IMG/VR virus record: IMGVR_UViG_3300044730_000687 | Location: 1 to 52,623 of that record | Origin: a virus | Lineage: Duplodnaviria > Caudoviricetes | Strand: one strand, 5' to 3' | Length of the DNA: 52,623 nt | Part shown: piece after piece, positions 4,903-50,983 of the stretch | How positions within the stretch are numbered: the first letter of the stretch is position 1 | Layout: every line of letters begins with the position of its first letter | Position numbers and translations under genes: made by a program | The notes under the pieces: model-generated | The model's database searches: none | Seen by the model: only the letters and a program-made list of their open reading frames with translations | What the model was told of the DNA's origin: nothing

Positions 4903-5129
4903 GCGTTCTTCCTTTGATCCATGTACTGCACGCACTCCTGCCACAACAACTCCGTCTCCTTCACTCCGTTTACTCTGGTTTGATTCACGGCGCAATCCGA
5001 TGTTCGAATCATGCACACCGCGAACCCTGCGTAGAAGGCGTCTTGCAATCCTTCCCATTGCACAGGTTCGCACCCGTCCGGGTAGCTTGCCTGCATCATG
5101 CGAATGAACTCGTCGCGGAGCGTGGTCAT
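4899..5129 (-). CDS. Hypothetical protein
   Basis: ATGA-coupled on both sides; AFYAG motif. Confidence 0.6.
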   Translation of the reverse strand: MTTLRDEFIRMMQASYPDGCEPVQWEGLQDAFYAGFAVCMIRTSDCAVNQTRVNGVKETELLWQECVQYMDQRKNA

Positions 5130-8406: not shown

Positions 8407-8846
8407 GTCTTTTTCCTCCAGGCGAACGACACAAGGTTTCGCATGATCCAAAGGTGCCGCAGGTTCGCCACGTTCACCACGTCTCGCGCCCTCGGGTACA
8501 CCTCGACCGCGTCGCACCCAGCGAATCCGCACCCGTCCTTGATGCCCTGCAACTCCTCCCAGCCGATGTCCGCTCGCCATTGGCCGTTGTCGTCGATCTC
8601 GGTCCGGCACACCGACAACCGCATTTCGACACCTTCCTCGCGAAACCCTTGCACGAGAAACTGACTCGATCTCCACACCTTGGCCGGTTTGCTCTCGCAC
8701 TCGGGCCAGAGTTCTTTCGGCACTTCCGTCATGCCGATGCCGTACAGCGCATTGGTTTCGCGCAGATGTTTCCGCGCCAGCGAGAGCCTTCGTTTCCACT
8801 CGCGCTTTCCGAGTTCGTTCCTGTCGCCGAGTAGTTGCGTCTTCAT
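8403..8846 (-). CDS. Conserved phage protein (WxELQxIK...AVEVYP...VNVANLRHLW family)
   Basis: Recognisable motif; ATGA overlaps. Confidence 0.8.
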   Translation of the reverse strand: MKTQLLGDRNELGKREWKRRLSLARKHLRETNALYGIGMTEVPKELWPECESKPAKVWRSSQFLVQGFREEGVEMRLSVCRTEIDDNGQWRADIGWEELQGIKDGCGFAGCDAVEVYPRARDVVNVANLRHLWIMRNLVSFAWRKKT

Positions 8847-9139
8847 GGTTTCTTCAGGATTCGCACCGTCACGTTCCGTCTCCCAAACCGTTTCGCTTCC
8901 TCGTGGCTCACCATCAGCACGTCCCACACCCCGTCATGCCGTCGCGCCGTCCTGTCCTCCACCCTCCTGCGGAATCGTCCGTACCCCGGCACGTCCAGCA
9001 ACACCACCGTTCCGAACGGGACGCTGCGCGGAGCCGCAATCGTTAGCCCAACCCGTGGCACCGTCCCGCTCGCCGTCAATCCGCCCTCTCGTCCGCAGCA
9101 AATGGCGCACACACAGTACGCCGTTGCCCAGCCCTTCAC
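8843..9139 (-). CDS. 3D (Asp-Asp-Asp) domain protein, MltA-like double-psi barrel
   Basis: ATAY...TASGT...IAAP..VPFGT...VEDR...DV...A..FGRR. Confidence 0.88.
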   Translation of the reverse strand: MKGWATAYCVCAICCGREGGLTASGTVPRVGLTIAAPRSVPFGTVVLLDVPGYGRFRRRVEDRTARRHDGVWDVLMVSHEEAKRFGRRNVTVRILKKP

Positions 9140-13056: not shown

Positions 13057-13060
13057 GCTC

Positions 13061-24284: not shown

Positions 24285-24392
24285 CTACAGGCTGAACAAA
24301 GCGATCAGCCCCAGCCAAATCAGAACCAACACGGCCCCAGCACTCAGCATCATGCCAAGGCCGTACAAGAGTTCGTTGAGCAACCGCTTCAC
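24285..24392 (-). CDS. Small membrane protein (35 aa, not in the ORF track)
   Basis: MKRLLNELLYGLGMMLSAGAVLVLIWLGLIALFSL; GTGA overlap. Confidence 0.6.
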   Translation of the reverse strand: MKRLLNELLYGLGMMLSAGAVLVLIWLGLIALFSL

Positions 24393-24616
24393 GAAAGCAC
24401 CTCCGCCATCGCGTCCGCGTGGTAAGGGTGCGTCGGAACCGTCTCGCACCAGATGAGGCTAGGATCCTGCTGGATCACTTCGTACGCCTCGCCGTAGGTG
24501 ATGCTTTCCTTCGCTCCTTCGACCGGGTCCGCGTACTTGCGCATGACCGAGTCCGTTCCGATTTCGTAGGCGTACGTGAGGGCCGCGCTACCGTGGAGTC
24601 TTGTGCTGTTGCTCAT
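24389..24616 (-). CDS. Hypothetical early protein
   Basis: ATG after the conserved leader. Confidence 0.7.
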   Translation of the reverse strand: MSNSTRLHGSAALTYAYEIGTDSVMRKYADPVEGAKESITYGEAYEVIQQDPSLIWCETVPTHPYHADAMAEVLS

Positions 24617-30201: not shown

Positions 30202-31332
30202 TTACCTCCAGCTCGTTTCCATCACGCTGGCAATTCGTCGATTCAGGTCGAGGCTTTGCTGCGCCACGTCCAGTTGCCTTCGTTGCACGTCAAGATTCGA
30301 TTGTGCGCCCCCTATGAAAAGGCCGATCCGTTGAAGCGCATCACTCGCCGGTCTTGCTGCCGCCTGTGACGCCGTCGCACCACCACCGCGCAACCCTTCC
30401 ACGTCAGCGGAACGTCCCGCCCTGGCTCTCCGTTCGGCCCTGGTTCGCGCTCGGTCCTGTTCGTCGTTCCGCTGCATTTGCTGGACGGCTTCGTCCGTGC
30501 TGTCCAATGCGCCTCGCGTTCCTCCAAGCCCCTTGTAGAACTCGGGATCTTTTCTCGCGTCGTAAGCCGTGATTGCCCCTTGGATGATTCGCTCGGTGAA
30601 GTTGACGCCTTTCTCCCACATTGAAATGACGCTTCCAACGACGCCAGCAAACCCGGCCTTCGCCTTTGCTGCCAGAATTCCAAACCTGTCGCCAACGTCG
30701 TCCAGTTGCTCGATCACTTCCGAGTCAATAATCGTCCCGAAGTCCACGGCTTCCTGTGCCAGCCCTGAGAACCCTTCGCGCAACATTGGGAGAACCTCGG
30801 ACCCCGACCTGCCAAGCAAAGCCATTGCCGCGCTCAACTCGGTCGCGTTGCCTGTCCCGTTCTCGATTGCGTTGCCAACCCGCACCCACAAGTCTTCCGC
30901 GTTCATGCTGCGAAGTTCTTGGACCGATATGCCAAGCTTTCGAAACGCATTCGCATCTTCGCCGCCACGATTCCCGACCGCCGCAACCTGCGACCGTTGC
31001 AGTTCACGAAACGCCGCCGTCGAAGCCCTCAGCGATGTCCCGGTTTTCTCGCCAGCGTACGCCAGCTTCTGCATGAAGTCGGTCGAAGCTCCGACCCGCT
31101 GGCTCATGTCGTTGATGCTCGATCCAAACTCAACAACCGACCGCACTTGATTCGCGAGGTAATCGACCGAGAACACCGCTGCCATTTGGGCTCCAATCCC
31201 GCGAATTGCGCTTGCCGGCAACTCGTTGATTGCCTTCCGGATCTTCCCAATCTCTCCGACCGCAGCCCTGGCAGCCGCGCCAAACCCCTCGTCGTTCCCA
31301 CGGAATCCTACTGTGAATTGCTCGTCAGACAC
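30202..31332 (-). CDS. Tail tape measure protein (short, 376 aa)
   Basis: Helical Ala/Gly-rich; MQKLAYAGEKTG, AFRKLGIS..EL, ALLGRSGSEVLPML. Confidence 0.85.
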   Translation of the reverse strand: MSDEQFTVGFRGNDEGFGAAARAAVGEIGKIRKAINELPASAIRGIGAQMAAVFSVDYLANQVRSVVEFGSSINDMSQRVGASTDFMQKLAYAGEKTGTSLRASTAAFRELQRSQVAAVGNRGGEDANAFRKLGISVQELRSMNAEDLWVRVGNAIENGTGNATELSAAMALLGRSGSEVLPMLREGFSGLAQEAVDFGTIIDSEVIEQLDDVGDRFGILAAKAKAGFAGVVGSVISMWEKGVNFTERIIQGAITAYDARKDPEFYKGLGGTRGALDSTDEAVQQMQRNDEQDRARTRAERRARAGRSADVEGLRGGGATASQAAARPASDALQRIGLFIGGAQSNLDVQRRQLDVAQQSLDLNRRIASVMETSWR

Positions 31333-31951
31333 GTCGTGCTCCCATGGGTTCGGGTTTTGGAATCGGGATCTCGCCTGACTTCAGCTTCTCGATTGTCTCG
31401 GCCTGTGCGTCGTGGACCGATGACCAAATCCGAATGGTCCCGACTTCTTCCATTGCCTCCAGGCGATCCAGAATGGACATGGCAACCGGAGTATCCATCG
31501 CTTCGTCAATCGTCTTGCGAAACGCGGACCGCTGGTGAGCGATCAGGATGTGAACATTCTCCGCGCCCCTCACACCTCCCGACCGGCACCCGTCACCTTT
31601 GAACGTCTGGGGACATCGCCACGCCGCCCGGAAGTAACGCAATGCCGCACCGTTGTCCTCGCGCTCGCAGTCGATTCGCTTCGCCAGCATCCATTTCAGC
31701 CACCAGCGAACCCGCTTTCCGTTCACTCGACTCGCCGCAACGCGCCAGTCCATCGAACACACGTATACGGCAAGCAACGTCTGTTCGTGCTTCAGTTCGA
31801 CTTCTTCCTCGGCACCAAAAGGCGAGTCCAACCGCTTCAGCAAAAGCGCATGTCCAAGCGTCAACTGTTTCAGTTCGACGCCGGCAACCCGGTGCCTGTC
31901 GGGAAAGACTGCGGCACCGTAGTCGGATCGAAATGGACGTGTGCTGCTCAC
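31325..31951 (-). CDS. Putative tail assembly chaperone
   Basis: Between the tail tube and tape measure genes; GVELKQLTLGH..LL. Confidence 0.65.
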   Translation of the reverse strand: MSSTRPFRSDYGAAVFPDRHRVAGVELKQLTLGHALLLKRLDSPFGAEEEVELKHEQTLLAVYVCSMDWRVAASRVNGKRVRWWLKWMLAKRIDCEREDNGAALRYFRAAWRCPQTFKGDGCRSGGVRGAENVHILIAHQRSAFRKTIDEAMDTPVAMSILDRLEAMEEVGTIRIWSSVHDAQAETIEKLKSGEIPIPKPEPMGARRV

Positions 31952-31953
31952 GA

Positions 31954-32400
31954 TCAGGTCACCACAGCCAATGATGCCGGGGTGTCGCCATGCCTGGACA
32001 GCGGAAGCGTCAACTCCCAGTAGCCTCCCGCCTCGCCATTCAGCGAACCGCCGCCGTCGTAGTTCCACGTCCCATTGATTAGCGTCCCGTTCGTGCTGTC
32101 GAAGTTCGCCAGCGTCACGATTCCAAGCATGGTCGGAAACTGCCCAAGCTTCAGAGCTTCGGCCATCGTCGGGCTCCCGGCCGTCATCTGCACCAACGCC
32201 CGAATCGTGATCTTGTGCTTTCGATCACGCCCGGTTCGCGTCTTGGTGTAACCGTACGAATTGCGCGCCTCGTCAATCGTGAACTCGTCACTCAGACCAA
32301 AGCCTTGCGGGTCCGTCACGGTCGTGGCGCTTCCCGTGAAAGCCAGCGTTGAACCGTCGATTCCGTATGCGGCTACTACGCCTGTCATTACCTTTGCCAT
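31954..32400 (-). CDS. Putative major tail (tube) protein
   Basis: Thr/Gly-rich beta protein in the canonical position. Confidence 0.65.
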   Translation of the reverse strand: MAKVMTGVVAAYGIDGSTLAFTGSATTVTDPQGFGLSDEFTIDEARNSYGYTKTRTGRDRKHKITIRALVQMTAGSPTMAEALKLGQFPTMLGIVTLANFDSTNGTLINGTWNYDGGGSLNGEAGGYWELTLPLSRHGDTPASLAVVT

Positions 32401-32413
32401 ATCGTGTCCTTTT

Positions 32414-32881
32414 TTAGACCGTCGTTCCCGTAATCTTCAACTTTGCCACAAGTTGCACGTCATAGACGAGCCATGGCGTTTGCGATTCCAACGTAATGGC
32501 CGTCGAAGCTCCTTCGAACACGGCCCACGGACTCTCGGTCATGTGCGCATGGTCCAGTGTCGCCAGCACTTCCTCGGCGACGCGCAAAGCCGTCCAATGC
32601 GACACACGACTTGTCCCCCTGTGAATCTTGACCGACTCAAACACCTTGATCGCGCAGGCCACTTCGCGCAAGACGTGGTTCACGCGCACCATCGTTGGCG
32701 TCGAGATGAAAGCGGCAATCCCATCTCGCGACAAACGCTTGTCTATCTCGCTTTCAAAGTCGCCTTCGTCCTCCGTGATAAATGCGACTTTCTCCGCCAT
32801 CCAACGAGCATCGTTTTGCAAAGTGCTTTGCATCCACGTCTGCACTGACCTCATGACGCCTGTCTCGGGTTCACGTACCAC
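32414..32881 (-). CDS. Putative tail terminator/completion protein
   Basis: Position upstream of the tube gene; about 150 aa. Confidence 0.55.
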   Translation of the reverse strand: MVREPETGVMRSVQTWMQSTLQNDARWMAEKVAFITEDEGDFESEIDKRLSRDGIAAFISTPTMVRVNHVLREVACAIKVFESVKIHRGTSRVSHWTALRVAEEVLATLDHAHMTESPWAVFEGASTAITLESQTPWLVYDVQLVAKLKITGTTV

Positions 32882-33149
32882 GGTTTGCCTCCTTCACGTC
32901 CTTGGCGTCTTGAAGGTCGCCGTTCAACAGGCTCCGGAACGATCCGCATGCCGCACCAATTAGCGCCGCGATCAAAATTGCCAAATCGTAGGCGTATTGC
33001 ACGGGATGCTGAACCATGGCGTTGAACCGTTCCGCTCCCACTTGGGACAACCATGCCGTTACGACGGCTGACAAAGCAATCCCCTCATACGTGATCAGCG
33101 TCAGAACCGCCCACTGCCATCGATTGACGAAGTTTCCTAAGGCTTTCAT
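32871..33149 (-). CDS. Holin-like membrane protein
   Basis: 92 aa, two hydrophobic segments, charged C-terminus. Confidence 0.6.
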   Translation of the reverse strand: MKALGNFVNRWQWAVLTLITYEGIALSAVVTAWLSQVGAERFNAMVQHPVQYAYDLAILIAALIGAACGSFRSLLNGDLQDAKDVKEANRGT

Positions 33150-33763
33150 GTCGCGTATGGGGTCCCGTCGTTGTCTTCCTGCGCTTCTCCAAGCTTGTGC
33201 GGAGCCACCTTTTCGACGACCCCAAACATCCGCAGGATCTTCCCGTCTCTGTTTTTGCTGACGTAGGTGTGGGCCTTCGCGATGAATCGCTCGCCGGTCT
33301 TTCTGTTGTGAACTCTGTAGGTTTCAAGCCACGGCATGCTTCCATTCAATGCGGCTCGCCAGTTGTTTGCTACCCGACTTCGCTCCTTGGCCCCTTCCAT
33401 TCCCTCAAGCCATCCGTTTCCGAGCATGCTGTGCGCGTCGAGACCGAACATGTCCGCAAGTGTTCTCGAAACGTACACGCAGTTCCCAATCTGGTCGCAT
33501 TCAAACGTTGCATCTCCTCCGCAGAAGTCAGCCCTGACTCGCTGGCCATCGCGCAACACCACGAGATCATCCTCAATAGCTGTAACCCGATCGGGAAGCG
33601 TCATGCCGCCGCTGCCAATGATCGCACTGTGAATCGCCGTCAGTTTCCGAATGCTGCTCCAAACCCATACAGCGGCACCTCCGACAACAGGATAGACAGA
33701 CACCACAACGAACTGCTTTACAAGCTCGGAACCGAATGCGTGCTGTAGAAATTCGGCGATCAT
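33146..33763 (-). CDS. Membrane-anchored PAS-domain protein
   Basis: TM helix, GSGGMTLPDRVTAIE linker, then FECDQIGNCVYVS..LADMFG...LGNGW...RV..NW..AL...YRV...RDGKILRMFGVV (PAS_3/PAS_4-like). Confidence 0.85.
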   Translation of the reverse strand: MIAEFLQHAFGSELVKQFVVVSVYPVVGGAAVWVWSSIRKLTAIHSAIIGSGGMTLPDRVTAIEDDLVVLRDGQRVRADFCGGDATFECDQIGNCVYVSRTLADMFGLDAHSMLGNGWLEGMEGAKERSRVANNWRAALNGSMPWLETYRVHNRKTGERFIAKAHTYVSKNRDGKILRMFGVVEKVAPHKLGEAQEDNDGTPYAT

Positions 33764-33782
33764 ATTTGTTGGTCTTTTGAAA

Positions 33783-34115
33783 TTACTCGCGAGTCAGGTT
33801 GCGAACTACAACGGTGAGAACGTTCTCCAACCGTGCAATTCGTTCGTCGCGCGTTCCTGTTCCAAAATCCCGAACGACCCTCCGTTGCTTTTCCAGTCGG
33901 GTATTGTCGTCGCGATTATCCTCCTCCTTTTTGAGTTGGGCCAATTCTTCAGGCAGCAACTCCCTTCCGCCAATCCAAAGCCACGTTGTGCCGTTGTATG
34001 AACAATTGGAAACAACCCACGTCGGACAATCAATATAGCCGTCCGGTGGAACATCTCCGCTGTAAATCTGTGTGGAGATGACTAGCGAGTCCTTGAGCAG
34101 CGCGGAGTTTTTCAT
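33783..34115 (-). CDS. Hypothetical protein (possible fibre chaperone)
   Basis: Coupled to the GH gene; C-terminal RIARLE coiled coil. Confidence 0.6.
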   Translation of the reverse strand: MKNSALLKDSLVISTQIYSGDVPPDGYIDCPTWVVSNCSYNGTTWLWIGGRELLPEELAQLKKEEDNRDDNTRLEKQRRVVRDFGTGTRDERIARLENVLTVVVRNLTRE

Positions 34116-37100
34116 GGTGCGTTAAGTGTCCCGATGGTCGCCGTCCCGATGGTCGCGTTCGGCGGAGTCGACGCAACTCCGTTCGTGACTGCGAATGTGA
34201 TTCCAGAAAGCTCTCCGGTGTTCCCATACTTGTCTCGCGCCTGCACATCTAGCCGATAGACTCCGTTGACCAGATTCGTGAACTCCGCGACTGTACCCTC
34301 GGCCCAGTTTTCCCATGGAGCAGATGGGCCGAGCCGGAATCGGCTCAACACGTTGCTCCTGTAGAGCGGAGTGTTCATCACCGTGTCGTCTAACGCGGTC
34401 CATTTGATGAACGTGTCAGTCAGCCCTTCTCCGTTCAGTGCGGACAGCGGGTACGAGTCCATAGTGATGACTGGCGGATTTGTGTCAGCCCGCGACGCGA
34501 CAACCGCATTGGTCAGCAGAGCAAACATAGCGGCAGGACTGATGGTGCGGCTGACGAGGTACGTGGCCACGCGCCCAATCGGGATGGCTGCGCTGTTGCT
34601 TGTCAGCAGATTCCCGAATACGTCAAGCTGGCCGAAGTTCGTGCTGCCCAGCGTCAAGCTTCGGTTCGTTTTGTCTTGGGTCCAGATGATTGCGGTAGTG
34701 AGATTGCTTTTGCCGAAAACGTAGCAGTCGGTTTTCGGTATGTTGGTCACCGAGGCAGTGTACGAAGGCGGGTCTATCAGCCTCTTGAATTGGAGCATCG
34801 CAGCAAGCTGTGGCCGCGCTTCATCGTAGAAATCCCACACAGGGGAGCTGGTGTCGATTGCTCCGCCGCGAATGTAGGAGCTGTATCGGGCGTCGTAGTA
34901 GTACACCCCCGCAAACCCATGACCCAAGCTGCGAGCCAGCACCGCCAAGGCACGCATCGTCGTGTTGTAACCAGCCCTGTCCATAACCTCGTGCCGAAGC
35001 ATTTCGTACGTCCACGCAGCTCCGGTCTGAATTCCGACATTGTATGTCCGGCAAGGACCGTTGTCGTAGACGCCGGATTCCGAGTTGTACACAGGTTTCC
35101 CGTAGTTGATCCCAAGTTGCTGCCACTGCTGATACCTGGGTCGATCCGTAACGTCGTCATTCATCAACATGACGACGTTGCCGCCTGCCGGGTAGAGATG
35201 GCACGACAGCCCGTGGACGTTGGAGAGTGTGTTCGACGGAAGGATGCCGAGAAACCCGTGAGCGACGTTCGTGTCAGCCATGCCGCCGCATGTCACGTAC
35301 AGCGCCCCGGGATAGGCTGCGTGTAGCGCATTCTCTTCTGTTATGGCGATGTCGCGCAGATTCGCTGCGGTCAGGGTCGAGTGTGGCTCATTCCGCATCT
35401 CATAAAATGCGATTCGGTCAGTGTACCGGCCGGCCACTCGATTAATGTAATCCCAAAGAAGGTTTGTGTGGACCATCGCGCCGCTGGAGACGGCGAATGC
35501 AGGTATCTCAGCATTCGTCCACAAAGTCATCCAGATGTCCTGTTCGTCGTGAGCGCCAACTCGCCAGTCGGTTGACTCGAACGTGAAATTGTTGTCTGTC
35601 GCCTCGATGCTCGTCCATCGCGCATACCCGCCAGGGGACAGAGTTCGGGTCCCGCGAAATCCAAGGACCTTGTTTGTCGCCACCGCGTCTTCGGCAGTCT
35701 GGCTGTGAATGTGGACAATCCCGTTGGTTGCGTCGCTCGACCAGACCTTCGCGAACATAGTCTCGTCCTGTTCTGGATGAGACGTTGACCTGCTCACGAC
35801 TCGGTAGTGGCCGAATTGAATCCACGGAGGAAAAGTGATTGTGTTGGTGGCCTTTCCGGGTGGCACTGACCCATTGAACTCGCCGCTGAAAATGGGCACT
35901 CCGAACTGATGGTTCGTCTGCCCGTAGGCGATGTAAGACCAGTTGAAATTTGAGGAACTCGAACCGTAGTTGTACGTGACGAGATCCATCGACACGGTCT
36001 CGTTGTCGAACCACAGATTGCCATTTCTCGGTGTGGTGAGAACAAACTCTACCCCGTGCTTTGGAGCCCACGGTGTGGCGGTTGCCCCCTCCTCAAGTTG
36101 GACGTCGTCGATGTAAAATGAGGTAAGCGTGACCGATTCGATCGTGAGCTGCCACTCAGCCGTGGGGCGGTCGCTTGCCCAAAAATTCGTCTGGAACCGC
36201 ACCCAGTTCGTGGTCCCCGGTGCGGTCCAATTCCATGAGTACCCCACGTTCGTTGTGCTGGCCGGAACGTAGCGATTCGTCCAAGCCAATGACGTCATCC
36301 TCGCAGTCACCGTTGACGCCAAGGCTTTGGCGTAAAAGCTCAACGTGTACTGACGAGTTCCAGGTCGCAGCTTGATAGGGCTGTTGTAGATCGCGAACCG
36401 AGCTTTACTGTCATTGATCCATGCAATCGTTGATCCAGTCACCGCGTTGTTGGTCGTTGCTACATTCGACTTCAAGAACGTAGGCTTGAAGAGATTGCTG
36501 TCGGTCTGCGAGTTTCTCGCATACATCCAGCGTGGCTGCCAACCCAGCTCAAACGAAGCGTTGCCAAGTTTGTTTCCATGGATGGCGTTGGTCTGAACTG
36601 GAGGCACCGAGTAATCGTAGAATGCGTCCATGTAGGCCGCCGTGCCGATCGGGTCAGTCGTTGCCGGTGCGGCGACGTTGGTGTTTGACGATAGCGCGAA
36701 CGCCTCAAGATAGAAGTCGTGGGCTTGGCTGGGTGCAGCGAGCCACGTAAACCGTACCTGGGCGTTGGTGAACTCCGTGGTCGCGACGTAATTGGTTCCG
36801 ACGTAGCCGGTGGCCTGGCTGAAATCTATGTTCGCCCAAGCGTTTGTTCCCAAGCGAAACTCCGCCACCCCCAGTGTGTTCGGTGGCTGAAAGTTTCGTG
36901 TCCAGGCTTTTAGGAAGGCCCTGTACGTCCCCGGCCCGCCCGACGGCCCGTCGATCGTTGCGGTTACATTCGTGGTCGCAGATGTGGTCCGGAAATACCA
37001 CGAGCCATACGTGAGGTTGACGTCCGACTTGGACCAGTTTGTGTTCTGCTGAGATAGGTCAAAGTCATCCTTCGTCCAGATCCGCAAGCCTGGAATCTGG

Positions 37101-37147
37101 GCCAGACATGAGACCGATGCGAACAGGATTGCAAGAAATAGCTTCAT
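34112..37147 (-). CDS. Signal-peptide-bearing clan GH-A glycoside hydrolase with CBM-like and Ig-like domains
   Basis: MKLFLAILFASVSCLA/Q; NASFE..YTLSFYAK..IDDVQLEEG (CBM4/9-like); YEMRNEP and PVYNSESG catalytic-like motifs. Confidence 0.82.
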   Translation of the reverse strand: MKLFLAILFASVSCLAQIPGLRIWTKDDFDLSQQNTNWSKSDVNLTYGSWYFRTTSATTNVTATIDGPSGGPGTYRAFLKAWTRNFQPPNTLGVAEFRLGTNAWANIDFSQATGYVGTNYVATTEFTNAQVRFTWLAAPSQAHDFYLEAFALSSNTNVAAPATTDPIGTAAYMDAFYDYSVPPVQTNAIHGNKLGNASFELGWQPRWMYARNSQTDSNLFKPTFLKSNVATTNNAVTGSTIAWINDSKARFAIYNSPIKLRPGTRQYTLSFYAKALASTVTARMTSLAWTNRYVPASTTNVGYSWNWTAPGTTNWVRFQTNFWASDRPTAEWQLTIESVTLTSFYIDDVQLEEGATATPWAPKHGVEFVLTTPRNGNLWFDNETVSMDLVTYNYGSSSSNFNWSYIAYGQTNHQFGVPIFSGEFNGSVPPGKATNTITFPPWIQFGHYRVVSRSTSHPEQDETMFAKVWSSDATNGIVHIHSQTAEDAVATNKVLGFRGTRTLSPGGYARWTSIEATDNNFTFESTDWRVGAHDEQDIWMTLWTNAEIPAFAVSSGAMVHTNLLWDYINRVAGRYTDRIAFYEMRNEPHSTLTAANLRDIAITEENALHAAYPGALYVTCGGMADTNVAHGFLGILPSNTLSNVHGLSCHLYPAGGNVVMLMNDDVTDRPRYQQWQQLGINYGKPVYNSESGVYDNGPCRTYNVGIQTGAAWTYEMLRHEVMDRAGYNTTMRALAVLARSLGHGFAGVYYYDARYSSYIRGGAIDTSSPVWDFYDEARPQLAAMLQFKRLIDPPSYTASVTNIPKTDCYVFGKSNLTTAIIWTQDKTNRSLTLGSTNFGQLDVFGNLLTSNSAAIPIGRVATYLVSRTISPAAMFALLTNAVVASRADTNPPVITMDSYPLSALNGEGLTDTFIKWTALDDTVMNTPLYRSNVLSRFRLGPSAPWENWAEGTVAEFTNLVNGVYRLDVQARDKYGNTGELSGITFAVTNGVASTPPNATIGTATIGTLNAP

Positions 37148-40100
37148 TTGTACTGGACAGCAATCTCGTTGAGAGTCGTATCCAGCGATGTCGAACCCGA
37201 AATGACCGCATTCCGCACCGACGCGCCAGCCGCCAAGCCCCAGGGAATATTCGATGAGTTCGTTACAACCGCCACATCATTGTGGTAGCCGATCATATTT
37301 GTGCCGTTAACATGGACACCAAGCTTGTACCACGTGCTTGGTGTGTACGTGATTCCGGTGTCCACCCACGTAACGCCCACGCTGTTCGAGACGCAGCCAA
37401 ACGCCCACGTCACCGCACCGCTGGCGATGTTCGTTTGGTGAATCCAGCCTGCAAACGTCGCTGGACGATTTGTGTCGCCCGTAGCCAGAGAATTGAATCC
37501 AACCTGGAGTGAGTAAATATTGGTCAGTACATTGCCAGATGTTTTGTCCGGCGTACGAATATCAGCGCCGAAGAACAACTGGTTAGTGCTGTTCTGCGTT
37601 GGGATTGCAAACGCACGATTGTCATACCAGCCAAAACACGGCGCTTGATTCGTGTTCTGCGCCCGCATGATGCGAATGCCTTGCCGGCCCGCACCGTTAG
37701 TCGCGCTGGTGTATTGGAACGATCCGCCATTGTTGGCACCGCTCGATCCCATATCACCGGATGTGACCGCCGTATTCAGGTTGAACAAATCATCAACGAA
37801 TAACTGTGATCCACCGATGATGCCTGTCACGAACATCTGAGGCGCGACACTTTCGAGTCGTTCATACACAGCACGCTCAGTCGCGACGTTAGTGCTGCTT
37901 TCCCAGCTTGGCCCGTACGGGTTGTACGAAACGATAAAGTTCGTAACCACGAGGCTGCTCATGATCACGTCTGCAAACGTGGCAGTGCCCGTGAAGGTCG
38001 GCGATGCGATGGTCGAGTACGTTGCGGCGGCGTCGTTGGAGCGAAGGATTGAGGATGGGATTCGGAGAGCGTCAATCGTTCCGGTGAGCAACGTTGCATC
38101 AACCGCCGTTATGTTGGCCGCGCTTGTTCCGTTCGTTCGAACGAAGCTGATGGAGGCCGAGTTGACTAGGTTGGAAACTGCGTTCGTCGCGCTCCCGATT
38201 GTGATGTAACCGGAACCTCCGCCTCCGCTTCCGCTCGCCGTAATCATGATCTTCTTATTCGAAGCGTCGTAGGCGAGACTAATGTTGTTTGACGAAACGA
38301 TTGAGTTCGTGAGCGCAGCCCACTGAACATCAGCAAAGTCGCTGATCGTCGAAGCAGTCTGCGTTCCCGTGTGATTTGCCCTGGAAATCAATGCTTGATA
38401 GGCTGCCGTCGTTAGCTTGTTCGTCCCCAAGCTGCTTGCAACAACCGAGTAGGTATAGTTCGATCCGCTTGTATTCCCCTCGATTTCCGATCCGTCGAGA
38501 AGGTTTAGCGTCGTCTTTTGAACTCCTTCGACCCACAGGGCCGTTCCGTTCGTTGGGCCGCCTCCTCCGCCTCCCGTAATCCCCATCGCGTTGTAAAGGT
38601 TTGCCAGCGTCATGCCGATACCTTCGCGAACTCCGGTTGATGGGTCGGCGGCGAATCCGTAGACGTGCGTCAGTGTGCCGGTGGAAGCCAGCACAGACAG
38701 AGGGCGCTCGAAGTAAATCCCGTTGTTCGTCCCGAAGTGCGCGAGGTTGTTTGCTCCCTTCTGGATCGTCAGCATCGCGTCCGCGTTTGCCTTCAAGACG
38801 AAAGCCTGCGTTGATCCGATTGCCCCTCCGGTAATCAGTCCGTTGAAGTTTGAGAGGACGTTTCCGAGCTTCACGGCTCCAGTTAACTCAGAGAAGCCAG
38901 CCACGTTCAGCCCGTTCGTGATGCTCAGCGAACCGTAAAGCGTGCCGCCGTAGTCCGGCAGGTACGGGTACACGTATCGCGTCCAGGCTGAATTGCGGTA
39001 GGTGAACGTGTCCTCTGTGCCAGCGCGAATCACTGTGTTGATGCCAGTGAACGTGACGGTGTTGGTGCCGGTGTTTCGGATCGTCAGCGTCGTGCCTGGG
39101 TACGTAAACCCGCCAACGCTGAACGTCATGTTGCTGGATCCTGTGATCTCCACCCGACTCGGCAGCAGGTCGCCGGGAATTGAAAGGTTTGTCGTCGCGC
39201 CCGAGACCGTGAAGTTGGTGGTGATAACCGAAAGCGCCGGCTGACTCTGCGTCCAAAGCTTAATCGGGACATTCGCGGGAAGCTCGTAGTCGCTGGCAAT
39301 GTCGGTCGGCGCGGAGTGGATCTCCCAATCGCGGACCAAGGAATTGGTCAGGCTCAAAGCCTTACCACTGTCCGATGTGATGGCGTTGTCCCGCCACCGG
39401 AACCCATAGAGCGTGGTGCCATTCGTGTCACGCAAAGCCCATGTCCCGCCCGTAAAGTCCTGGTAGAAGTAATTGCGGGTGACCGACAGAGCGCTGTGCT
39501 GGCCCGGTCCAAGGGCGATCGGGTTCTGAGTGAATACCTCAAAGTAATTGTGGTCGATGCTGTTGTTGATTTGACCTGAACCAACAACGCCTTCCGGATA
39601 AATTCCGTAGCGCAGACTCTGAAAAACATTCGCTGTGAAGTCGTGGTTTGCCACGCCCCCTTTCCAACGAATACCGATCGCATTGGTAAATCCTGGCGAC
39701 TCAAACTTGTTCCGAAAGATTGAATTTGCTGTCGCTGAAACACCATTAAGATCCAGCCCGATGTCAGAGTTGTTTATGAATGTGTTGAAGGTGATCAGAT
39801 GTCCGTAGTTCTGATTGCCAGTCAGCAACACGCCAACGCCGTTCGCCCTGTAGAAGTCATTTCCAACGATCTTGAACTCCGTCGAATTGTTGATGGTCAG
39901 GATGTTTGTCGCGGTGTTGTTCGCGTCGAACCAAAGATTTTCGATGGTGACGTGCCGCATCGTGTGAAGCGTGAACATCGTCGATGCTGACGTGCCGCGA
40001 ATGATGGACCGAAGCCCCGGCTGGCCTCGCAACGCCAATCCACCAACGAGCCCGGTTCCCGTGAAGCTTACGCTCGAAACCAGAATCGTCCCAACCGGGA

Positions 40101-40503
40101 ACTCAAGCGTCGGGACGTTGTTGGAGTAACAGTAGTTGATCGCGGCTTGCACTCCTGCCGTTCCGTCTGTCGATCCGTCGCTCGCAACTCCAAACCATTC
40201 GGCGCGTTGAGGAATAGCAAGCCTGTCAGCCGAGACCCACTTACCTGAAACTGATCTGTTCGTTAGGTAGTGAACACCGTCGTGCGACTGTGTTGCGGAT
40301 GGATCGTTCCGAAATGTTCGCGGTTGGCTGAATGGGACGGTTGCGCTGTAATTCCTGACTTGAATCTCCTCGCCAACAACGGGGCGTCTGGAGGTCAAGT
40401 CGGCAATCGTCGCGACGCTGTTAACTGGATTCATCTGCTGGCCAAAAGCCGCGATTGAAACGCACGCGCACAGCAGGCTAAGGAGTAGTGTCTGGATTCT
40501 CAT
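37144..40503 (-). CDS. Signal-peptide-bearing tail spike/fibre with a pectin-lyase-like beta-helix
   Basis: MRIQTLLLSLLCACVSIAAFG/Q; WFGVASDGSTDGTAGVQAAIN..LEFPVGT; fibre motifs RANHTGTQTASTISDF and ASPTFTGT. Confidence 0.85.
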   Translation of the reverse strand: MRIQTLLLSLLCACVSIAAFGQQMNPVNSVATIADLTSRRPVVGEEIQVRNYSATVPFSQPRTFRNDPSATQSHDGVHYLTNRSVSGKWVSADRLAIPQRAEWFGVASDGSTDGTAGVQAAINYCYSNNVPTLEFPVGTILVSSVSFTGTGLVGGLALRGQPGLRSIIRGTSASTMFTLHTMRHVTIENLWFDANNTATNILTINNSTEFKIVGNDFYRANGVGVLLTGNQNYGHLITFNTFINNSDIGLDLNGVSATANSIFRNKFESPGFTNAIGIRWKGGVANHDFTANVFQSLRYGIYPEGVVGSGQINNSIDHNYFEVFTQNPIALGPGQHSALSVTRNYFYQDFTGGTWALRDTNGTTLYGFRWRDNAITSDSGKALSLTNSLVRDWEIHSAPTDIASDYELPANVPIKLWTQSQPALSVITTNFTVSGATTNLSIPGDLLPSRVEITGSSNMTFSVGGFTYPGTTLTIRNTGTNTVTFTGINTVIRAGTEDTFTYRNSAWTRYVYPYLPDYGGTLYGSLSITNGLNVAGFSELTGAVKLGNVLSNFNGLITGGAIGSTQAFVLKANADAMLTIQKGANNLAHFGTNNGIYFERPLSVLASTGTLTHVYGFAADPSTGVREGIGMTLANLYNAMGITGGGGGGPTNGTALWVEGVQKTTLNLLDGSEIEGNTSGSNYTYSVVASSLGTNKLTTAAYQALISRANHTGTQTASTISDFADVQWAALTNSIVSSNNISLAYDASNKKIMITASGSGGGGSGYITIGSATNAVSNLVNSASISFVRTNGTSAANITAVDATLLTGTIDALRIPSSILRSNDAAATYSTIASPTFTGTATFADVIMSSLVVTNFIVSYNPYGPSWESSTNVATERAVYERLESVAPQMFVTGIIGGSQLFVDDLFNLNTAVTSGDMGSSGANNGGSFQYTSATNGAGRQGIRIMRAQNTNQAPCFGWYDNRAFAIPTQNSTNQLFFGADIRTPDKTSGNVLTNIYSLQVGFNSLATGDTNRPATFAGWIHQTNIASGAVTWAFGCVSNSVGVTWVDTGITYTPSTWYKLGVHVNGTNMIGYHNDVAVVTNSSNIPWGLAAGASVRNAVISGSTSLDTTLNEIAVQYK

Positions 40504-47794: not shown

Positions 47795-49198
47795 TCACCA
47801 AGTCAACTGCCGATCTTCACCTCTCACGACTTCTTCAATGTATCCGGTATCTTGCGGTGCCTCGCCCCACGCCGATCCCGCCAATCTCGCGAACGCTCCC
47901 GCAAGGCAATCAACTTGATCGTCCTTCGCGCCATCGGGGAACGATTCGCATTCCGACAGGAAAGCCTCGGTCCAATCCCCTTGCACCACCATCACGTTGC
48001 CAACCTCGACTTGGGGAGACACGACTTCAGCCCTGGCCAATTTGCTTGCCCTTGGGACCGGGTCGAATCGAAGGCCGAGTTCAGGGAGTGTCGTGAGGTA
48101 ATCGTTCGCCTCCACCTTGCCGGCCTGACCTGGGTCGTGCTGAAGCCATTGCTCAACGTTCGGTCCGTCCGACAATGTCGTGTTTCGAATCGCGGCCTTC
48201 ACGTCTCCAGGCGTGCCTTGGAACCTGACAACGTGCGTCACGTAATAGCGCCGATCCATCCCGACGCCCATCCGCAGTCCCACCGTCCAGTCGGGATTCG
48301 GGTTCTTCGATGTCGGTTTCGTTGCGGCTCGATCCCAGTACCGGATGATTCGCGTAAGGCTTTGTGGTGCGGTCGGAACCATCGGGAACCATTCCCTTCG
48401 GAACACCTTGCCGCTTTCGCTCCTCACCTTCCAATCGCCAAGCTCCAACCGTTTCCGAAGCACCAGCGAAAGCGAACGCATCTTTGCGAGGTAAGTCGGA
48501 TCGCTCTGCGTCAGCTTTGGATTGTCCGCCAGCAACGCCGGGATGAACGTGACGCTCAAAGCCCTGTGCTCGCCATAGACCGCCTCGGCCTTTGCCCTGG
48601 TGGGGAACCACACCAAGTCCTCACCGTCCCGCACCATCCATCGAACCTTGCCGGCCTTTGCCGGGTCCGCGAACTGGCCTTCCTCATCCAGCCACCAGCG
48701 AACGAACTTCTTGACCCATGAATCAGCGTCCGGGTTTGTCGTGGCCCTGATTCGTCCCGGGATGCCTGACGTACTGCGCGACCGGCCCAGCATGTTCAGG
48801 AATTGGTCACGGTCGAAGTGCGTCAATTCGTCAAACCCCATGCACGGAATCTGCGCCCCTTGCATCGCGGTCTCGGCGGCGTCGTCCTCCAAATGTCGGA
48901 ACCCAACCCTGAATCCGTTCTTCCATCGCCACTCGCCTTTGCCGGGGAATGGATACCCTCCAGCCGTTGGATACAGTTTGCACGCGCTCGACCACAAACC
49001 GCCAGCCACCCAAATCTGTGCGCCGATTCGACGGAAGATGAGGCTCTCGAAGTCTGGCTCGCGCACGTTCCGCAGCGGGTCCATCAGAAGCGCGAACGTT
49101 TTGCCGCCACCTCCCCCCCCGCCATAAATCACGATGTCGGCTGGAGATTCGAGGAAGTTGGTTTGCGGACCTGCGTTGGCTGCGATGCGTTGCGCCAT
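47795..49198 (-). CDS. terL: Terminase large subunit
   Basis: YGGGGGGGKT Walker A, GFDELTHF Walker B, ATTNP, RYWDRAA, FPDGAKDDQVD. Confidence 0.96.
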   Translation of the reverse strand: MAQRIAANAGPQTNFLESPADIVIYGGGGGGGKTFALLMDPLRNVREPDFESLIFRRIGAQIWVAGGLWSSACKLYPTAGGYPFPGKGEWRWKNGFRVGFRHLEDDAAETAMQGAQIPCMGFDELTHFDRDQFLNMLGRSRSTSGIPGRIRATTNPDADSWVKKFVRWWLDEEGQFADPAKAGKVRWMVRDGEDLVWFPTRAKAEAVYGEHRALSVTFIPALLADNPKLTQSDPTYLAKMRSLSLVLRKRLELGDWKVRSESGKVFRREWFPMVPTAPQSLTRIIRYWDRAATKPTSKNPNPDWTVGLRMGVGMDRRYYVTHVVRFQGTPGDVKAAIRNTTLSDGPNVEQWLQHDPGQAGKVEANDYLTTLPELGLRFDPVPRASKLARAEVVSPQVEVGNVMVVQGDWTEAFLSECESFPDGAKDDQVDCLAGAFARLAGSAWGEAPQDTGYIEEVVRGEDRQLTW

Positions 49199-49201
49199 GG
49201 G

Positions 49202-49552
49202 TCAACAGTACGGCTCGAAATCCCGTGGCAGTATGCAATTCCCCGGTGCATCGTGGAACATTGGCCCAATCTGATCGGGTCGATATCCGGCCAGTCCGCA
49301 CCCGATGGCCACGACGCAAAACTGAGTATCGGGATTCGCTCTGGCGTAGTCGATGAAGTGCCGAACGTGTCCCTCGATCTCGCACAGTTCCATCCGTTCG
49401 ATGTTCCGATCCTTCGTCGGTATCGCGTAAGCGTTGCCGGTCGGACCAAATCCAATGCCCATCTCGGCCCCCCAGTTCAGTCTCGCTTCTCGCGCCGACC
49501 CTGCGCCATGGATGCCGGCAAGATTGCTTCCGAACACAAAACACTTCTTCAT
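49202..49552 (-). CDS. A1S_2505-family macro-domain-like protein
   Basis: FVFGSNLAGIHGAG.A, YAIPTK, IGCGLAGY. Confidence 0.85.
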   Translation of the reverse strand: MKKCFVFGSNLAGIHGAGSAREARLNWGAEMGIGFGPTGNAYAIPTKDRNIERMELCEIEGHVRHFIDYARANPDTQFCVVAIGCGLAGYRPDQIGPMFHDAPGNCILPRDFEPYC

Positions 49553-49812
49553 GCGATGGACCTTTTGACCGTGCCGGCGTTGTCCGCTTCGTAGTGCTGC
49601 TGCGTCTTGTCTGGCTCGCTCGGCAGCTTCCACTCCACGATGGCCGTCGATTGCAGATGCATCGAACCATTCGCGAATCGGATCTTCCGGTTGCGCCATT
49701 CGGCCGCAGCCCGTTCGGCCCCATCCCGCGTCACGGCCAGCCCTTCCACCGTCCAACAGTGGGACCCGACGGGCCGCACCATCACGGCAAACGTGCTTCG
49801 TTCCTCGCTCAC
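49549..49812 (-). CDS. Hypothetical protein
   Basis: AAAGGA SD; coupled. Confidence 0.6.
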   Translation of the reverse strand: MSEERSTFAVMVRPVGSHCWTVEGLAVTRDGAERAAAEWRNRKIRFANGSMHLQSTAIVEWKLPSEPDKTQQHYEADNAGTVKRSIA

Positions 49813-50108: not shown

Positions 50109-50191
50109 GGCACGTAAACGATGAGTGCCACGCGGGCGTTGGTTGCCGCCAGGGCATTGACATCCAAAACATTGTTGCGCTTTGTGCTCAC
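50105..50191 (-). CDS. Small 28-aa peptide (not in the ORF track)
   Basis: MSTKRNNVLDVNALAATNARVALIVYVP; GTGA overlaps at both ends. Confidence 0.45.
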   Translation of the reverse strand: MSTKRNNVLDVNALAATNARVALIVYVP

Positions 50192-50439
50192 TTCGCGCCC
50201 TCCACGATCACCGGCACCCCGTGCTGGTCCACGCCCCGGGTCTTGGTCCATCCGCAGTACAGTGTGAGAAACGCCGATGCCGCATGCGCTGCGTCAACCT
50301 CTTGCTTGGATGGCTCCCTGAAAGCCGTGCTGGCGCGGTACATCTCGTACGTTGTCCGGTACGCCCCGCACCGCTGGTCTTTGGTTGTTCCGCAGCCGAC
50401 GAGCAGCAGGGCGAGGAGGAGTGAGAGTGAGCGGATCAC
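50188..50439 (-). CDS. Lipoprotein
   Basis: SLSLLLALLLVGC lipobox; two further Cys. Confidence 0.7.
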   Translation of the reverse strand: MIRSLSLLLALLLVGCGTTKDQRCGAYRTTYEMYRASTAFREPSKQEVDAAHAASAFLTLYCGWTKTRGVDQHGVPVIVEGAK

Positions 50440-50711
50440 GGCTTCCTCCCTTCTGCCCGGGCGATGGCGGCCCGTGCTGCATACCAAGCGAGGTGATCAT
50501 GTTCGGTGGTTGCCATGATTTCCTTCAGTGCGGCCAAAAGCTCCGGAGCCGTTGCGATCAGATTGCAGTTGGCTTCAGATTCCTGATCTCCAGGGTGATG
50601 CACAACCGCCAAGCGCTTTCCCCTGCCAAACACAACTCGTGATTCTGCGTCGAGATCGTTGTAGTCTCCACGGTCGGCTAGCGACCAAGGCCCCGGCGTA
50701 TGTTTTCTCAC
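50436..50711 (-). CDS. Conserved phage protein (HTPGPW...AN..LIA.APELL family)
   Basis: Recognisable motif. Confidence 0.85.
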   Translation of the reverse strand: MRKHTPGPWSLADRGDYNDLDAESRVVFGRGKRLAVVHHPGDQESEANCNLIATAPELLAALKEIMATTEHDHLAWYAARAAIARAEGRKP

Positions 50712-50983
50712 GGCTTCACCTCCCCGATGATGCGATCCAGTTCTTGGCGCAAAGTTTTCATTTCCGACTTCGTCCGTTTCTCTTCGTGCATCAAGTTGTT
50801 CATGACGCTCAGAGTTTCGAGATAGCTGTCTCTTAAGTGGCCGTTGGCTTGCCTGTAGGTTTCAATCAGCGAATCTTTGGCCCCCAAAACTGAGCGGTGG
50901 TTTTTGGTCTTTTCATGGTTGATGAAAGCAAGCGTAAGGACAGCAATCGCAAGAAACGCATTGAGCGCCAGTGATGTTTTCAT
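50708..50983 (-). CDS. N-terminal TM plus coiled-coil protein
   Basis: MKTSLALNAFLAIAVLTLAFI followed by a helical region. Confidence 0.65.
   Translation of the reverse strand: MKTSLALNAFLAIAVLTLAFINHEKTKNHRSVLGAKDSLIETYRQANGHLRDSYLETLSVMNNLMHEEKRTKSEMKTLRQELDRIIGEVKP

Follow-up and report, generated by a model that had tools for sequence, protein, structure and literature searches.

A membrane-anchored stand-alone PAS protein and a two-helix protein form a conserved membrane module in a tailed phage genome

Introduction

To our knowledge, the molecular basis of lysis timing has been worked out in detail in only a handful of model phages, and an antiholin that senses a signal is known to us mainly from RI of phage T4. 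The T4 holin T has one transmembrane (TM) helix and a large periplasmic domain, and the genes rI and t do not adjoin each other. The lambdoid S21 type represents the class II holins and pinholins, and P2 LysA and P1 LydB are examples of separate antiholins. The PAS domain is a classic and tractable sensor, the cofactors of which are visible by spectroscopy and the pocket of which can be mutated. VqmA-Phage of vibriophage VP882 is reportedly a PAS-containing receptor, with the switch to lysis tied to a small molecule. The literature on this phage describes the encoded protein as homologous to VqmA, a quorum-sensing receptor (PMC8284805). According to two further papers, T4 RI combines a membrane-targeting N-terminal segment with a soluble domain for sensing; it binds the holin T and delays lysis upon a signal (PMC8385771, PMC11413866). 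In the available parts of the open-access literature, we found no paper joining a PAS domain with a phage antiholin, a holin or lysis timing.

The stretch of DNA analysed here (52,623 nucleotides, the window) has terminal repeats of 127 bp and represents a complete phage genome of 52.6 kb. In an original prediction made from its letters, a membrane protein carrying a PAS domain was coupled to a downstream holin-like gene as a possible signal-gated lysis system. The RI/T pair, as described in the papers cited above, is the working model that this gene pair would resemble; RI is likewise a small separate protein with a membrane segment and a sensing domain.

Results

The gene pair lies between the genes of two giant proteins with signal-peptide-like N-termini on one side and tail genes on the other. 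Both ORFs were found as originally predicted: 33146..33763(−), where (−) marks the minus strand, encodes a 205-aa protein and 32871..33149(−) a 92-aa protein, each from an ATG start. The end of the former ORF and the start of the latter share 4 nt (ATGA), which also agrees with the prediction. This overlap shows little by itself because overlaps of 4 nt occur at 9 of the 71 junctions of the phage genome. The codon-usage scores per codon were 0.209 for the PAS gene, 0.238 for the 92-aa gene and 0.203 for the terminase gene terL, with a training set that included neither gene of the pair. The two genes thus score like confident genes.

The predicted PAS domain of the 205-aa protein was confirmed by three family models, all above their cut-offs: Pfam PAS_3 (35.0 bits, cut-off 25.6), Pfam PAS_4 (27.1 bits, cut-off 23.1) and NCBIfam TIGR00229 (sensory_box; 31.5 bits, cut-off 22.9, residues 84–190). 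The protein belongs to a family of 11 clusters (8 close and 3 distant) among billions of proteins, and PAS_3 and PAS_4 matched 10 of the 11 members at E ≤ 0.001. The PAS core, residues 84–190 (33194..33514(−)), was delimited by Pfam, NCBIfam, AF2, Foldseek and the alignment. Residues E88, G93, C95, G107, G115, G117, W118, L119, R128, P144, N153, L177 and G181 of the core are invariant in all 11 members and, judged by this conservation, C95, W118, R128 and N153 may line the pocket. A disulfide or redox pair C89–C95 was also considered and was dropped since C89 is absent from the members P0014 and P0016 in the alignment. The AF2 model reached a pLDDT of 72–89 across residues 81–190 and contained strands 85–89 and 95–98, helices 100–106, 117–121 and 124–141, and strands 146–152, 159–170 and 176–188, an order which we read as PAS-like and which agrees with the five-stranded antiparallel sheet and flanking helices of the PAS fold. 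The Foldseek search that had been proposed as a check of the fold gave at least 500 PDB matches at E ≤ 0.001, the best of which were LOV and hERG PAS domains with a TM score (by target) of 0.66–0.79.

As predicted, neither a kinase nor any other output domain was found, and all 11 members are only 195–216 aa long. Besides PAS, the protein had no Pfam or PHROG match, including the known antiholins RI, RIII, LydB and LysA, and no PHROG match at all at E ≤ 0.01. Solved structures searched by sequence with the PAS alignment A1 gave nothing at E ≤ 0.01. PADLOC produced just a chance-level CorA-like match at the TM helix (E = 0.02), and its defence scan gave nothing for the other 7 of the 8 phage proteins scanned.

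The single TM helix of the original prediction corresponds to one hydrophobic segment, residues 18–36 (33656..33712(−)), assigned from KD19 and the flanking charges. Pro25 in this segment is invariant, and Tyr24 is invariant among the 8 close members. KD19 is 1.73 in the window protein and 1.09–1.83 over the 11 members. The helix of most relatives contains much Ala, Gly and Trp and is only weakly hydrophobic: KD19 is below 1.6 in 7 of the 11 members, in which A, G, S and T make up 8–10 of the 19 residues. The Wimley-White octanol free energy is nevertheless below 0 in all 11. Low hydrophobicity, a high content of Gly, Ala, Ser and Thr and the ability to leave the membrane characterise TM helices of the signal-anchor-release (SAR) type. 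On the N-side of the helix acidic residues outnumber basic ones in every member, and the C-side has a net positive charge. This charge distribution suggests an orientation with the N-terminus out and the C-terminus in; a helix spanning the inner membrane in this way would place the PAS domain in the cytoplasm.

The juxtamembrane linker that follows, residues 50–77 (GSGGMTLPDRVTAIEDDLVVLRDGQRVR; 33533..33616(−), alignments A1 and A4), is the best-conserved stretch among the 8 close members. Its pLDDT in the AF2 model is low (39–42), and it is probably an N-terminal cap or a signalling segment of the PAS domain. The linker had originally been likened to the NGGSSLRD..DRIE motif of small lysis-cassette membrane proteins. 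This likeness was not borne out: among 1.84 billion representatives, a profile built from the N-terminal 84 positions found 4 proteins, all of 205–216 aa and none outside the family, the N-terminal module with the linker had no Pfam match at E ≤ 10, and the TM and linker module matched just phrog_9869 (unknown function) among PHROGs, at E = 0.02–0.095 with 2 of 3 sequences. A motif of 15–20 residues could slip past such profile searches. Since all 11 members lack an output domain and the N-terminal module was not found fused to other domains among the 1.84 billion representatives, the output is expected to proceed via protein contacts.

The downstream 92-aa protein (32871..33149(−)) has the two hydrophobic segments predicted for it. 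The first helix, residues 14–32 (33054..33110(−)), was assigned from the alignment and hydropathy, contains polar residues (T, Y, E/Q and S) and is nearly invariant in the family. The second, at about residues 53–74 (32928..32993(−)), is rich in Ala and Gly. The family consists of 5 clusters among billions of proteins, every one 92 aa long, and its helices are near-invariant while the loop and the termini vary. Eight of the last 21 residues are charged, and the protein probably folds back as a hairpin of two helices, so that its N- and C-terminus would both be cytoplasmic. Holins are typically small, have one or more TM helices and end in a charged hydrophilic tail, traits which the 92-aa protein shares, and among 72 scored ORFs this is the sole one below 150 aa with two hydrophobic segments. 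A dual-start motif is absent, with one Met at the start and the next not before residue 45. Pfam gave no match at E ≤ 10 and PHROGs nothing significant, the best holin match being phrog_18836 at E = 0.13. By protein-language-model comparison (Atlas), the nearest neighbours were small viral proteins (0.85–0.87), and holin families followed at 0.83–0.84; this holin likeness is a lead only because it is below the 0.9 bar. The prediction of a complex between the PAS protein (A1) and the 92-aa protein (A3) scored 0.00 twice in runs made without controls and weighs neither way.

A metagenome scan yielded two related loci, L001 and L002, and the gene context therefore covers three loci together with the window. 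The PAS protein and its alignments found no related loci in viral contigs or genome contigs, and neither did searches with the 148-aa and 155-aa tail proteins; TerL found one 7.3-kb fragment, 97% identical. Other PAS family members sit on contigs of 73.9, 22, 11.8 and 6.7 kb. The adjacency of the PAS and 92-aa genes and their 4-nt overlap are the same in the window and L001. Only these two of the three loci include the junction, as L002 stops inside the PAS gene. In comparison with L001, the tape measure protein is 98% identical, the 148-aa protein 100%, the 155-aa protein 93% and the 92-aa protein 71%, and further upstream identity decreases to 54% for the PAS protein, 34% for the 110-aa protein and 26% for the glycanase-like protein. 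The block alignable by blastn ends 18 nt into the 92-aa gene. From this stepwise drop and the end of the block it follows that the two genes of the pair have not been inherited together as a tight unit. Among cultured phages, TerL reached 45.8% identity at most and the major capsid protein had no match, and a tblastn search with the family member P0003 against 50,697 phage records gave nothing at E ≤ 1. None of the phages searched was a cultured relative suited to a comparison of gene order.

The tail block downstream of the pair (30202..32881(−)), recognised by PHROG tape-measure matches, encodes proteins of 155, 148 and 247 aa and the tape measure protein, and its DNA is 85–94% identical to L001. 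Immediately upstream of the PAS gene, 33783..34115(−) encodes a 110-aa soluble protein of unknown function with no family match in Pfam, PHROGs or NCBIfam. It has a counterpart in L001, and L002 carries a small signal-peptide-bearing ORF in its place. The next gene (34112..37147(−)) encodes a 1011-aa protein, the N-terminus of which resembles a signal peptide. It has weak glycoside hydrolase matches; neither Glyco_hydro_10 (E = 0.0027) nor Y_Y_Y (E = 9.2e-5) of Pfam reaches the cut-off. Its catalytic-type motifs are kept in alignment A5. Solved structures searched by sequence gave one chance-level match (E = 0.076), and the AF2 model of the glycanase-like region (552 aa, alignment of 3 rows) was unusable, with a mean pLDDT of 29.9. 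The second giant protein (37144..40503(−), 1119 aa), also with a signal-peptide-like N-terminus, had neither a family match nor a solved structure by sequence. Overlaps of 4 nt link the genes between 40991 and 33783 to one another, and likewise the two genes of the pair, and every product from 40991 to the pair has a hydrophobic N-terminal segment except the 110-aa protein.

No muralytic domain was found by Pfam, PHROGs or NCBIfam in the genes adjoining the pair. The sole candidate peptidoglycan enzyme of the genome is a 98-aa 3D-domain-like protein (8843..9139(−)), 24 kb from the pair, which may cleave peptidoglycan. Its Atlas structure match (TM 0.85) is a cluster with PF06725 in 97% of members, and its Atlas feature scores against viral clusters were 0.95–0.97. 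NCBIfam gave weak matches to the C-terminal ends of EntA-D cell-wall-binding proteins (E = 0.006–0.13), Pfam gave none, and no solved structure was found by sequence at E ≤ 10. A putative spanin-like set (50188..50983(−)), about 17 kb from the pair, comprises two proteins of 91 aa, one with a TM helix and one soluble, and a lipoprotein-like ORF. In the TM protein (50708–50983) the TM helix is N-terminal and the C-terminal part is helical and appears coiled-coil-like by eye, and the leader of the lipoprotein-like ORF (50188–50487) ends with LLVGC; the set matched the Rz-like phrog_214 just at E = 0.12. Another membrane-protein candidate is a 54-aa ORF with one TM helix at 24285–24449. A PEP-CTERM/VPDSG-type sorting signal on ORF 382–849 was considered as a clue to the host and dropped, as it had no NCBIfam match.

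Discussion

Together, the genes for the PAS protein and the 92-aa protein make up a conserved membrane module in this tailed phage. With or without a link to lysis, the PAS proteins are a conserved and very rare phage family of output-less membrane PAS proteins.

Since the genome is complete, with terminal repeats, a holin is expected somewhere within it. The reading that the 92-aa protein is this holin and the PAS protein its regulator (antiholin or co-holin) is the likeliest of those considered, but doubtful. In its favour, the 92-aa protein is the sole small two-helix membrane protein, its C-tail is charged, its helices vary little, the pair is kept in L001 and the PAS protein has no output domain of its own. 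Against it, no muralytic gene adjoins the pair, neither protein matches a holin or antiholin family, the likeness of the linker to lysis-cassette proteins was not borne out, the identities to L001 drop stepwise across the pair, the lysis candidates are distant, and other membrane-protein candidates exist at 24285–24449 and 50708–50983. As for gene position, which speaks for this reading, the lysis genes of P2 also lie between head and tail genes, and those of T4 are scattered around the genome. According to this reading, the 92-aa protein would act as a holin or pinholin that builds up in the membrane during late expression, and the PAS protein would regulate it by helix–helix contacts in the membrane and by the conserved juxtamembrane segment. 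A cytoplasmic ligand or a redox change at the PAS pocket (invariant C95, W118, R128 and N153) would shift the time of permeabilisation, which would in turn release a cytoplasmic muralytic enzyme (the candidate at 8843–9139) and/or activate exported enzymes. The more specific proposal of a PAS-built antiholin or holin partner, through which a cytoplasmic ligand or the redox state directly times the opening of a two-helix holin, seems rather unlikely to us. If true, it would be the first case of metabolite- or energy-gated lysis timing at the holin itself and not through transcription. If the PAS protein does act on a holin, two small genes expressed in E. coli would suffice for a direct test of which intracellular cue times lysis.

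It is unlikely that the PAS protein is a decoy of host signalling. As a tethered domain, it would bind its PAS counterpart in a membrane sensor of the host, such as a histidine kinase, a c-di-GMP enzyme or an Aer-type receptor, so that the sensor is blocked or redirected in the infected cell; the 92-aa protein would be an accessory membrane partner or unrelated. The PAS_3, PAS_4 and sensory_box matches are typical of bacterial sensors, the weak NCBIfam matches of the protein are c-di-GMP enzymes, and the output domain is missing from all 11 members. The PAS identity of 54% between two phages with tail genes 93–100% identical also suits a host-interaction protein. A precedent is provided by phage-encoded peptides with affinity for a diguanylate cyclase of the host (PMC8085984). 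However, conservation peaks at the juxtamembrane linker and not at the surface of the PAS sheet, and the conservation of the 92-aa neighbour is left unexplained.

A role in superinfection exclusion, or as a membrane "moron", is improbable. The pair would then be late-operon inner-membrane proteins that alter the envelope or block the DNA entry of other phages, and the position of two small membrane proteins within the structural block, beside fast-diverging host-range-like genes, is consistent with this. Small inner-membrane exclusion proteins such as T4 Imm and Sp and HK97 gp15 are precedents. Nevertheless, no PHROGs or PADLOC family matched, and a cytoplasmic sensor domain would have no obvious role. 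Long-term protection of a lysogen is unlikely because neither an integrase nor a repressor was recognised in the genome.

It is likewise improbable that the pair helps the two co-transcribed giant signal-peptide proteins by controlling how they are exported, anchored or activated: such a role agrees with the order of the genes (the glycanase-like gene, one small gene and the PAS gene in 3 of 3 loci), with the 4-nt overlaps and with the hydrophobic N-terminal segments, but Sec export does not need such a helper, the identities to L001 (26% for the glycanase-like protein vs 54% and 71% for the pair) do not co-vary closely, and the signal peptides were assigned by eye.

The reading as a holin with a PAS regulator can be compared with several known systems. 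The sensing domain of T4 RI is periplasmic and is not a PAS domain, whereas the PAS domain described here is cytoplasmic as judged from the charge distribution, and no sequence relation between the two proteins was found with Pfam and PHROGs. The holin T has one TM helix, in contrast to the two-helix hairpin of the 92-aa protein. The latter resembles the class II holins and S21 pinholins, which have about 70–100 aa, two helices and ends that are probably cytoplasmic, and it also shares with them the charged C-tail and the Ala/Gly-rich helices with polar residues. It differs from them in having no holin homology in Pfam or PHROGs, no dual start and no adjoining endolysin.

LOV domains share the PAS fold with the 205-aa protein, with a TM score (by target) of up to 0.79. 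The stretch that we take to correspond to the LOV flavin-binding cysteine motif (E-alpha region) reads LGNGWLEG in the 205-aa protein, and C95, the one invariant cysteine, is on the second strand. A LOV photoreceptor was dropped as a candidate since the cysteine at the flavin site is missing from all 11 members of the alignment.

The PAS protein had 17 viral matches in BFVD at E ≤ 0.001. The best two, of 195 and 205 aa and both named "PAS domain [uncultured Caudovirales phage]", are PAS-only proteins of similar size (166 and 204 aligned columns, E = 1.6e-9 and 2.6e-8, identity 14–16%). VqmA-Phage, on the other hand, is soluble, carries a DNA-binding domain and acts as a transcription factor, whereas the 205-aa protein contains a membrane helix, lacks any output domain and would act post-translationally at the membrane.

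The PAS protein and its family

Both ORFs were found as described originally, with 205 aa encoded by the PAS gene (33146-33763, minus strand) and 92 aa by the holin-like gene (32871-33149, minus strand). In a codon-usage test trained on the other genes of the same genome, both proved gene-like, scoring 0.209 and 0.238 per codon, respectively (terminase, 0.203). The PAS protein matched PAS_3 (35.0 bits, cut-off 25.6) and PAS_4 (27.1 bits, cut-off 23.1) in Pfam and sensory_box in NCBIfam (31.5 bits, cut-off 22.9; residues 84-190). An AF2 model built from an 8-sequence alignment reached a pLDDT of 72-89 at residues 81-190, and its strands and helices succeed one another as in a PAS domain, in our reading; in the N-terminal 80 residues, the model shows a long helix (13-49) and then a linker of low confidence. 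The predicted fold was borne out by Foldseek, which gave at least 500 PDB matches at E ≤ 0.001, the best of those listed being LOV and hERG PAS domains (TM-score by target 0.66-0.79). A LOV photoreceptor was rejected, since LGNGWLEG stands at what we take to be the position of the motif with the flavin-binding cysteine.

A word-indexed search of 5.8 billion proteins yielded eight clusters of PAS family members (195-212 aa, 46-100% identity). A profile of the helix and linker (first 84 positions), run against all 1.84 billion representatives of any length, matched four proteins at E ≤ 0.001, namely the PAS protein itself and three more distant proteins of 212, 212 and 216 aa, and revealed no fusion of the N-terminal module to kinases or anything else. 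Helix, linker and PAS core are common to all 11 members, and the architecture of the family is therefore fixed; PAS_3 and PAS_4 were matched by ten of them. P25 in the helix and E88, G93, C95, G107, G115, G117-W118-L119, R128, P144, N153, L177 and G181 in the PAS core are invariant throughout. Among the eight close members, conservation is highest in the linker (residues 50-77; 33533-33616, minus strand). Its proposed likeness to a motif of small lysis-cassette membrane proteins was not supported, as profile, Pfam and PHROGs searches detected no relatives among other small membrane proteins, although relatives carry NGGSSLLDRVGAIEDDL at the site in question. A short pattern at the C-terminus of the 110-aa protein encoded upstream (33783-34115, minus strand), DERIARLENVL, resembles the PAS linker (DRVTAIEDDLVVL), which may be due to chance. 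The 92-aa family comprises five clusters whose members are all 92 aa long (71-100% identity), and a profile search added no further members. The PAS family is rare, conserved and uncharacterised, and the observation is real, beyond chance.

Membrane topology

In all 11 PAS proteins, acidic residues outnumber basic ones in the flank N-terminal to the helix, and the 15 residues C-terminal to it, of which no more than one is acidic, carry a net charge of +2 to +4. From these charges and the positive-inside rule, we infer a cytoplasmic PAS domain. The octanol-scale free energy of the helix is negative in all members; in seven of the 11 the helix is Trp-rich and weakly hydrophobic (KD19 1.09-1.58, A/G/S/T at 8-10 of 19 residues), a composition that may resemble that of signal-anchor-release helices. 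The 92-aa protein has hydrophobic segments at about 14-32 and 53-74; its N-terminus is basic (K2, R10), and 8 of the 21 residues in its C-terminal tail are charged. Within its family, the helices, which include polar and small residues, are nearly invariant and the loop is variable.

Genome and gene order

The record is listed as a 100% complete genome with direct terminal repeats; an exact 127-bp repeat stands at both ends of its 52,623 bases. The minus strand carries every credible gene of the window, including all those named here. An HNH endonuclease and then small genes come first in transcription order. An A1S_2505-family phage non-structural protein (49202-49756; NCBIfam, 139.6 bits) lies directly upstream of the large terminase (47795-49198) and occupies the position expected for a small terminase. 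The terminase is followed by a Mu-type portal, a Mu-type protease, the major capsid protein, several unknowns and two giant proteins of 1119 aa (37144-40503) and 1011 aa (34112-37147). Next come the 110-aa protein, the pair of PAS and 92-aa genes, three proteins of 155, 148 and 247 aa and the tape measure protein (30202-31332; PHROG matches), and then 299-, 123- and 1188-aa proteins and the replication and DNA-metabolism genes. The pair thus lies inside the late structural block, immediately upstream of the tail genes.

No tRNA gene was found and no integrase or repressor was recognised in the whole window. Upstream of most gene starts there are A-rich stretches and no Shine-Dalgarno-like sequence. 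Pfam and PHROGs also identified two proteins with PAPS-reductase domains (5126-6421 and 15158-16033), one of them also with DUF3440, and a ParB-like protein (6759-7484). Next to an SNF2-type helicase (10996-13149) lies a pentapeptide-repeat protein whose C-terminal domain is DUF5758 (13061-13678). A 155-aa ORF at 382-849 begins like a signal peptide, and its C-terminus consists of a hydrophobic anchor and then basic residues, an end that we take to resemble PEP-CTERM or VPDSG-type sorting signals; it had no match in NCBIfam.

Gene context beyond the window came from two related metagenome loci, L001 (5.4 kb) and L002 (2.5 kb). L001 shares the order of the window, from the glycanase-like protein through the 110-aa-like ORF, the PAS gene, the 92-aa gene and the 155-aa protein to those of 148 and 208 aa and then the tape measure. 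L002 contains a glycanase-like protein, a small ORF with a signal peptide and the PAS gene at the contig end. Protein identity between the window and L001 declines stepwise going upstream (30202-37147): 98% for the tape measure, 99% for the 247-aa protein (208 aa in L001), 100% for the 148-aa, 93% for the 155-aa, 71% for the 92-aa, 54% for the PAS, 34% for the 110-aa and 26% for the glycanase-like protein. The blastn-alignable block (90% identity) stops 18 nt into the 92-aa gene. The pair is thus situated where a conserved tail block borders on a fast-diverging one. A single sharp recombination breakpoint was rejected, a gradient being seen instead over 30202-37147.

Both giants start with a single basic residue, a run of 10-12 hydrophobic residues and then small ones, which by eye looks like a cleavable signal peptide. 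Such starts on consecutive giants (34112-40503) in a structural block are unusual for virion proteins. The 1011-aa protein matched Glyco_hydro_10 and Y_Y_Y in Pfam weakly, both under the cut-off, and the AF2 model of its glycanase-like region had a pLDDT of 29.9. It shares motifs with its L001 and L002 counterparts, which in our reading may be of the kind bearing catalytic residues in glycoside hydrolases. If the giants are exported, the block 40503-32871 consists entirely of envelope-directed products and fits an envelope-acting module of unspecified kind.

Evidence for and against a lysis cassette

The overlap of the PAS stop with the 92-aa start is present as described originally, measures 4 nt and is identical in L001. 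Several points speak against a lysis cassette. Overlaps of 4 nt occur at 9 of the 71 junctions in the window, including the three from 40991 to 33783. Pfam, PHROGs and NCBIfam revealed no muralytic domain in the neighbours of the pair, and neither Pfam nor PHROGs assigned the 92-aa protein to a holin family (best phrog_18836, E = 0.13). Other lysis-like genes lie far away, as set out below.

In favour of a lysis cassette, the genome is complete, and a holin is therefore expected somewhere in the window. Of the 72 ORFs scored, none below 150 aa other than the 92-aa protein has two hydrophobic segments; the remaining small membrane candidates (24285-24449 and 50708-50983) have one each. Its Atlas neighbours were viral small proteins (0.85-0.87) and three holin families (0.83-0.84, under the bar of the tool), a proximity that is a lead only. 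There is precedent for such a placing, as lysis genes are scattered in T4 and lie between head and tail genes in P2.

The sole wall-enzyme candidate found in the genome is a 98-aa 3D-domain-like protein (8843-9139), identified by Atlas features and structure among early and DNA-metabolism genes and without a membrane neighbour. 3D domains belong to MltA-like lytic transglycosylases. The protein was not scored by Pfam and matched the C-terminal ends of EntA-D in NCBIfam weakly; in Atlas, its feature scores to viral clusters were 0.95-0.97, and by structure (TM 0.85) it matched a cluster 97% of which is PF06725. Of the three Asp positions in the 3D motif, the first looks replaced by eye, on our assumption of where the motif lies. 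Far from the pair, upstream of the terminase region, lie three small translationally coupled genes (50188-50983), possibly a split spanin pair. One product (50708-50983; Rz-like PHROG, E = 0.12) has a TM helix at its N-terminus and a helical C-terminal part that is coiled-coil-like by eye; the others are a soluble protein of 91 aa and an ORF whose lipoprotein-type leader ends in LLVGC. The lysis interpretation of the pair is plausible and weaker than assumed in the original prediction.

Possible function and known systems

Anatomy, conservation and adjacency of the pair are observed directly; the topology, an interaction between the two proteins and an influence on lysis are what we infer. The 92-aa protein might be a holin or pinholin and the PAS protein its regulator, a reading that we hold tentatively. 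The PAS protein would then act via membrane-helix contacts and the conserved linker and couple the triggering time to a cytoplasmic ligand or the redox state. The PAS domain, lacking an output domain, could be a decoy of a host PAS sensor, which we consider unlikely. Superinfection exclusion or another membrane moron function is distinctly improbable, and a role of the pair as a helper of exported glycanases is slightly less probable still. Functions beyond these readings account for the remainder.

As regards a sensor acting on a holin, searches of open-access literature for a PAS domain together with a holin or antiholin found nothing relevant, and no characterised phage counterpart of the PAS protein was found. 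Small PAS-only proteins occur in uncultured tailed phages: BFVD contained 17 matches to the PAS protein at E ≤ 0.001, and the alignments of the best two (195 and 205 aa) span 166 and 204 columns with 14-16% identity. PAS-only architecture is therefore not unique among viruses. VP882 encodes VqmA-Phage, a homologue of the quorum-sensing receptor VqmA (PMC8284805). To our knowledge, it is the sole phage PAS receptor tied to lysis, and unlike the PAS protein it is a soluble transcription factor. Two reports on T4 describe antiholin RI, whose sensing domain binds holin T (PMC8385771, PMC11413866). The PAS protein differs from RI in having no homology to it and in that its sensing domain would face the opposite side of the membrane; the working model resembles RI and T in that a protein with a sensing domain would act on a holin.
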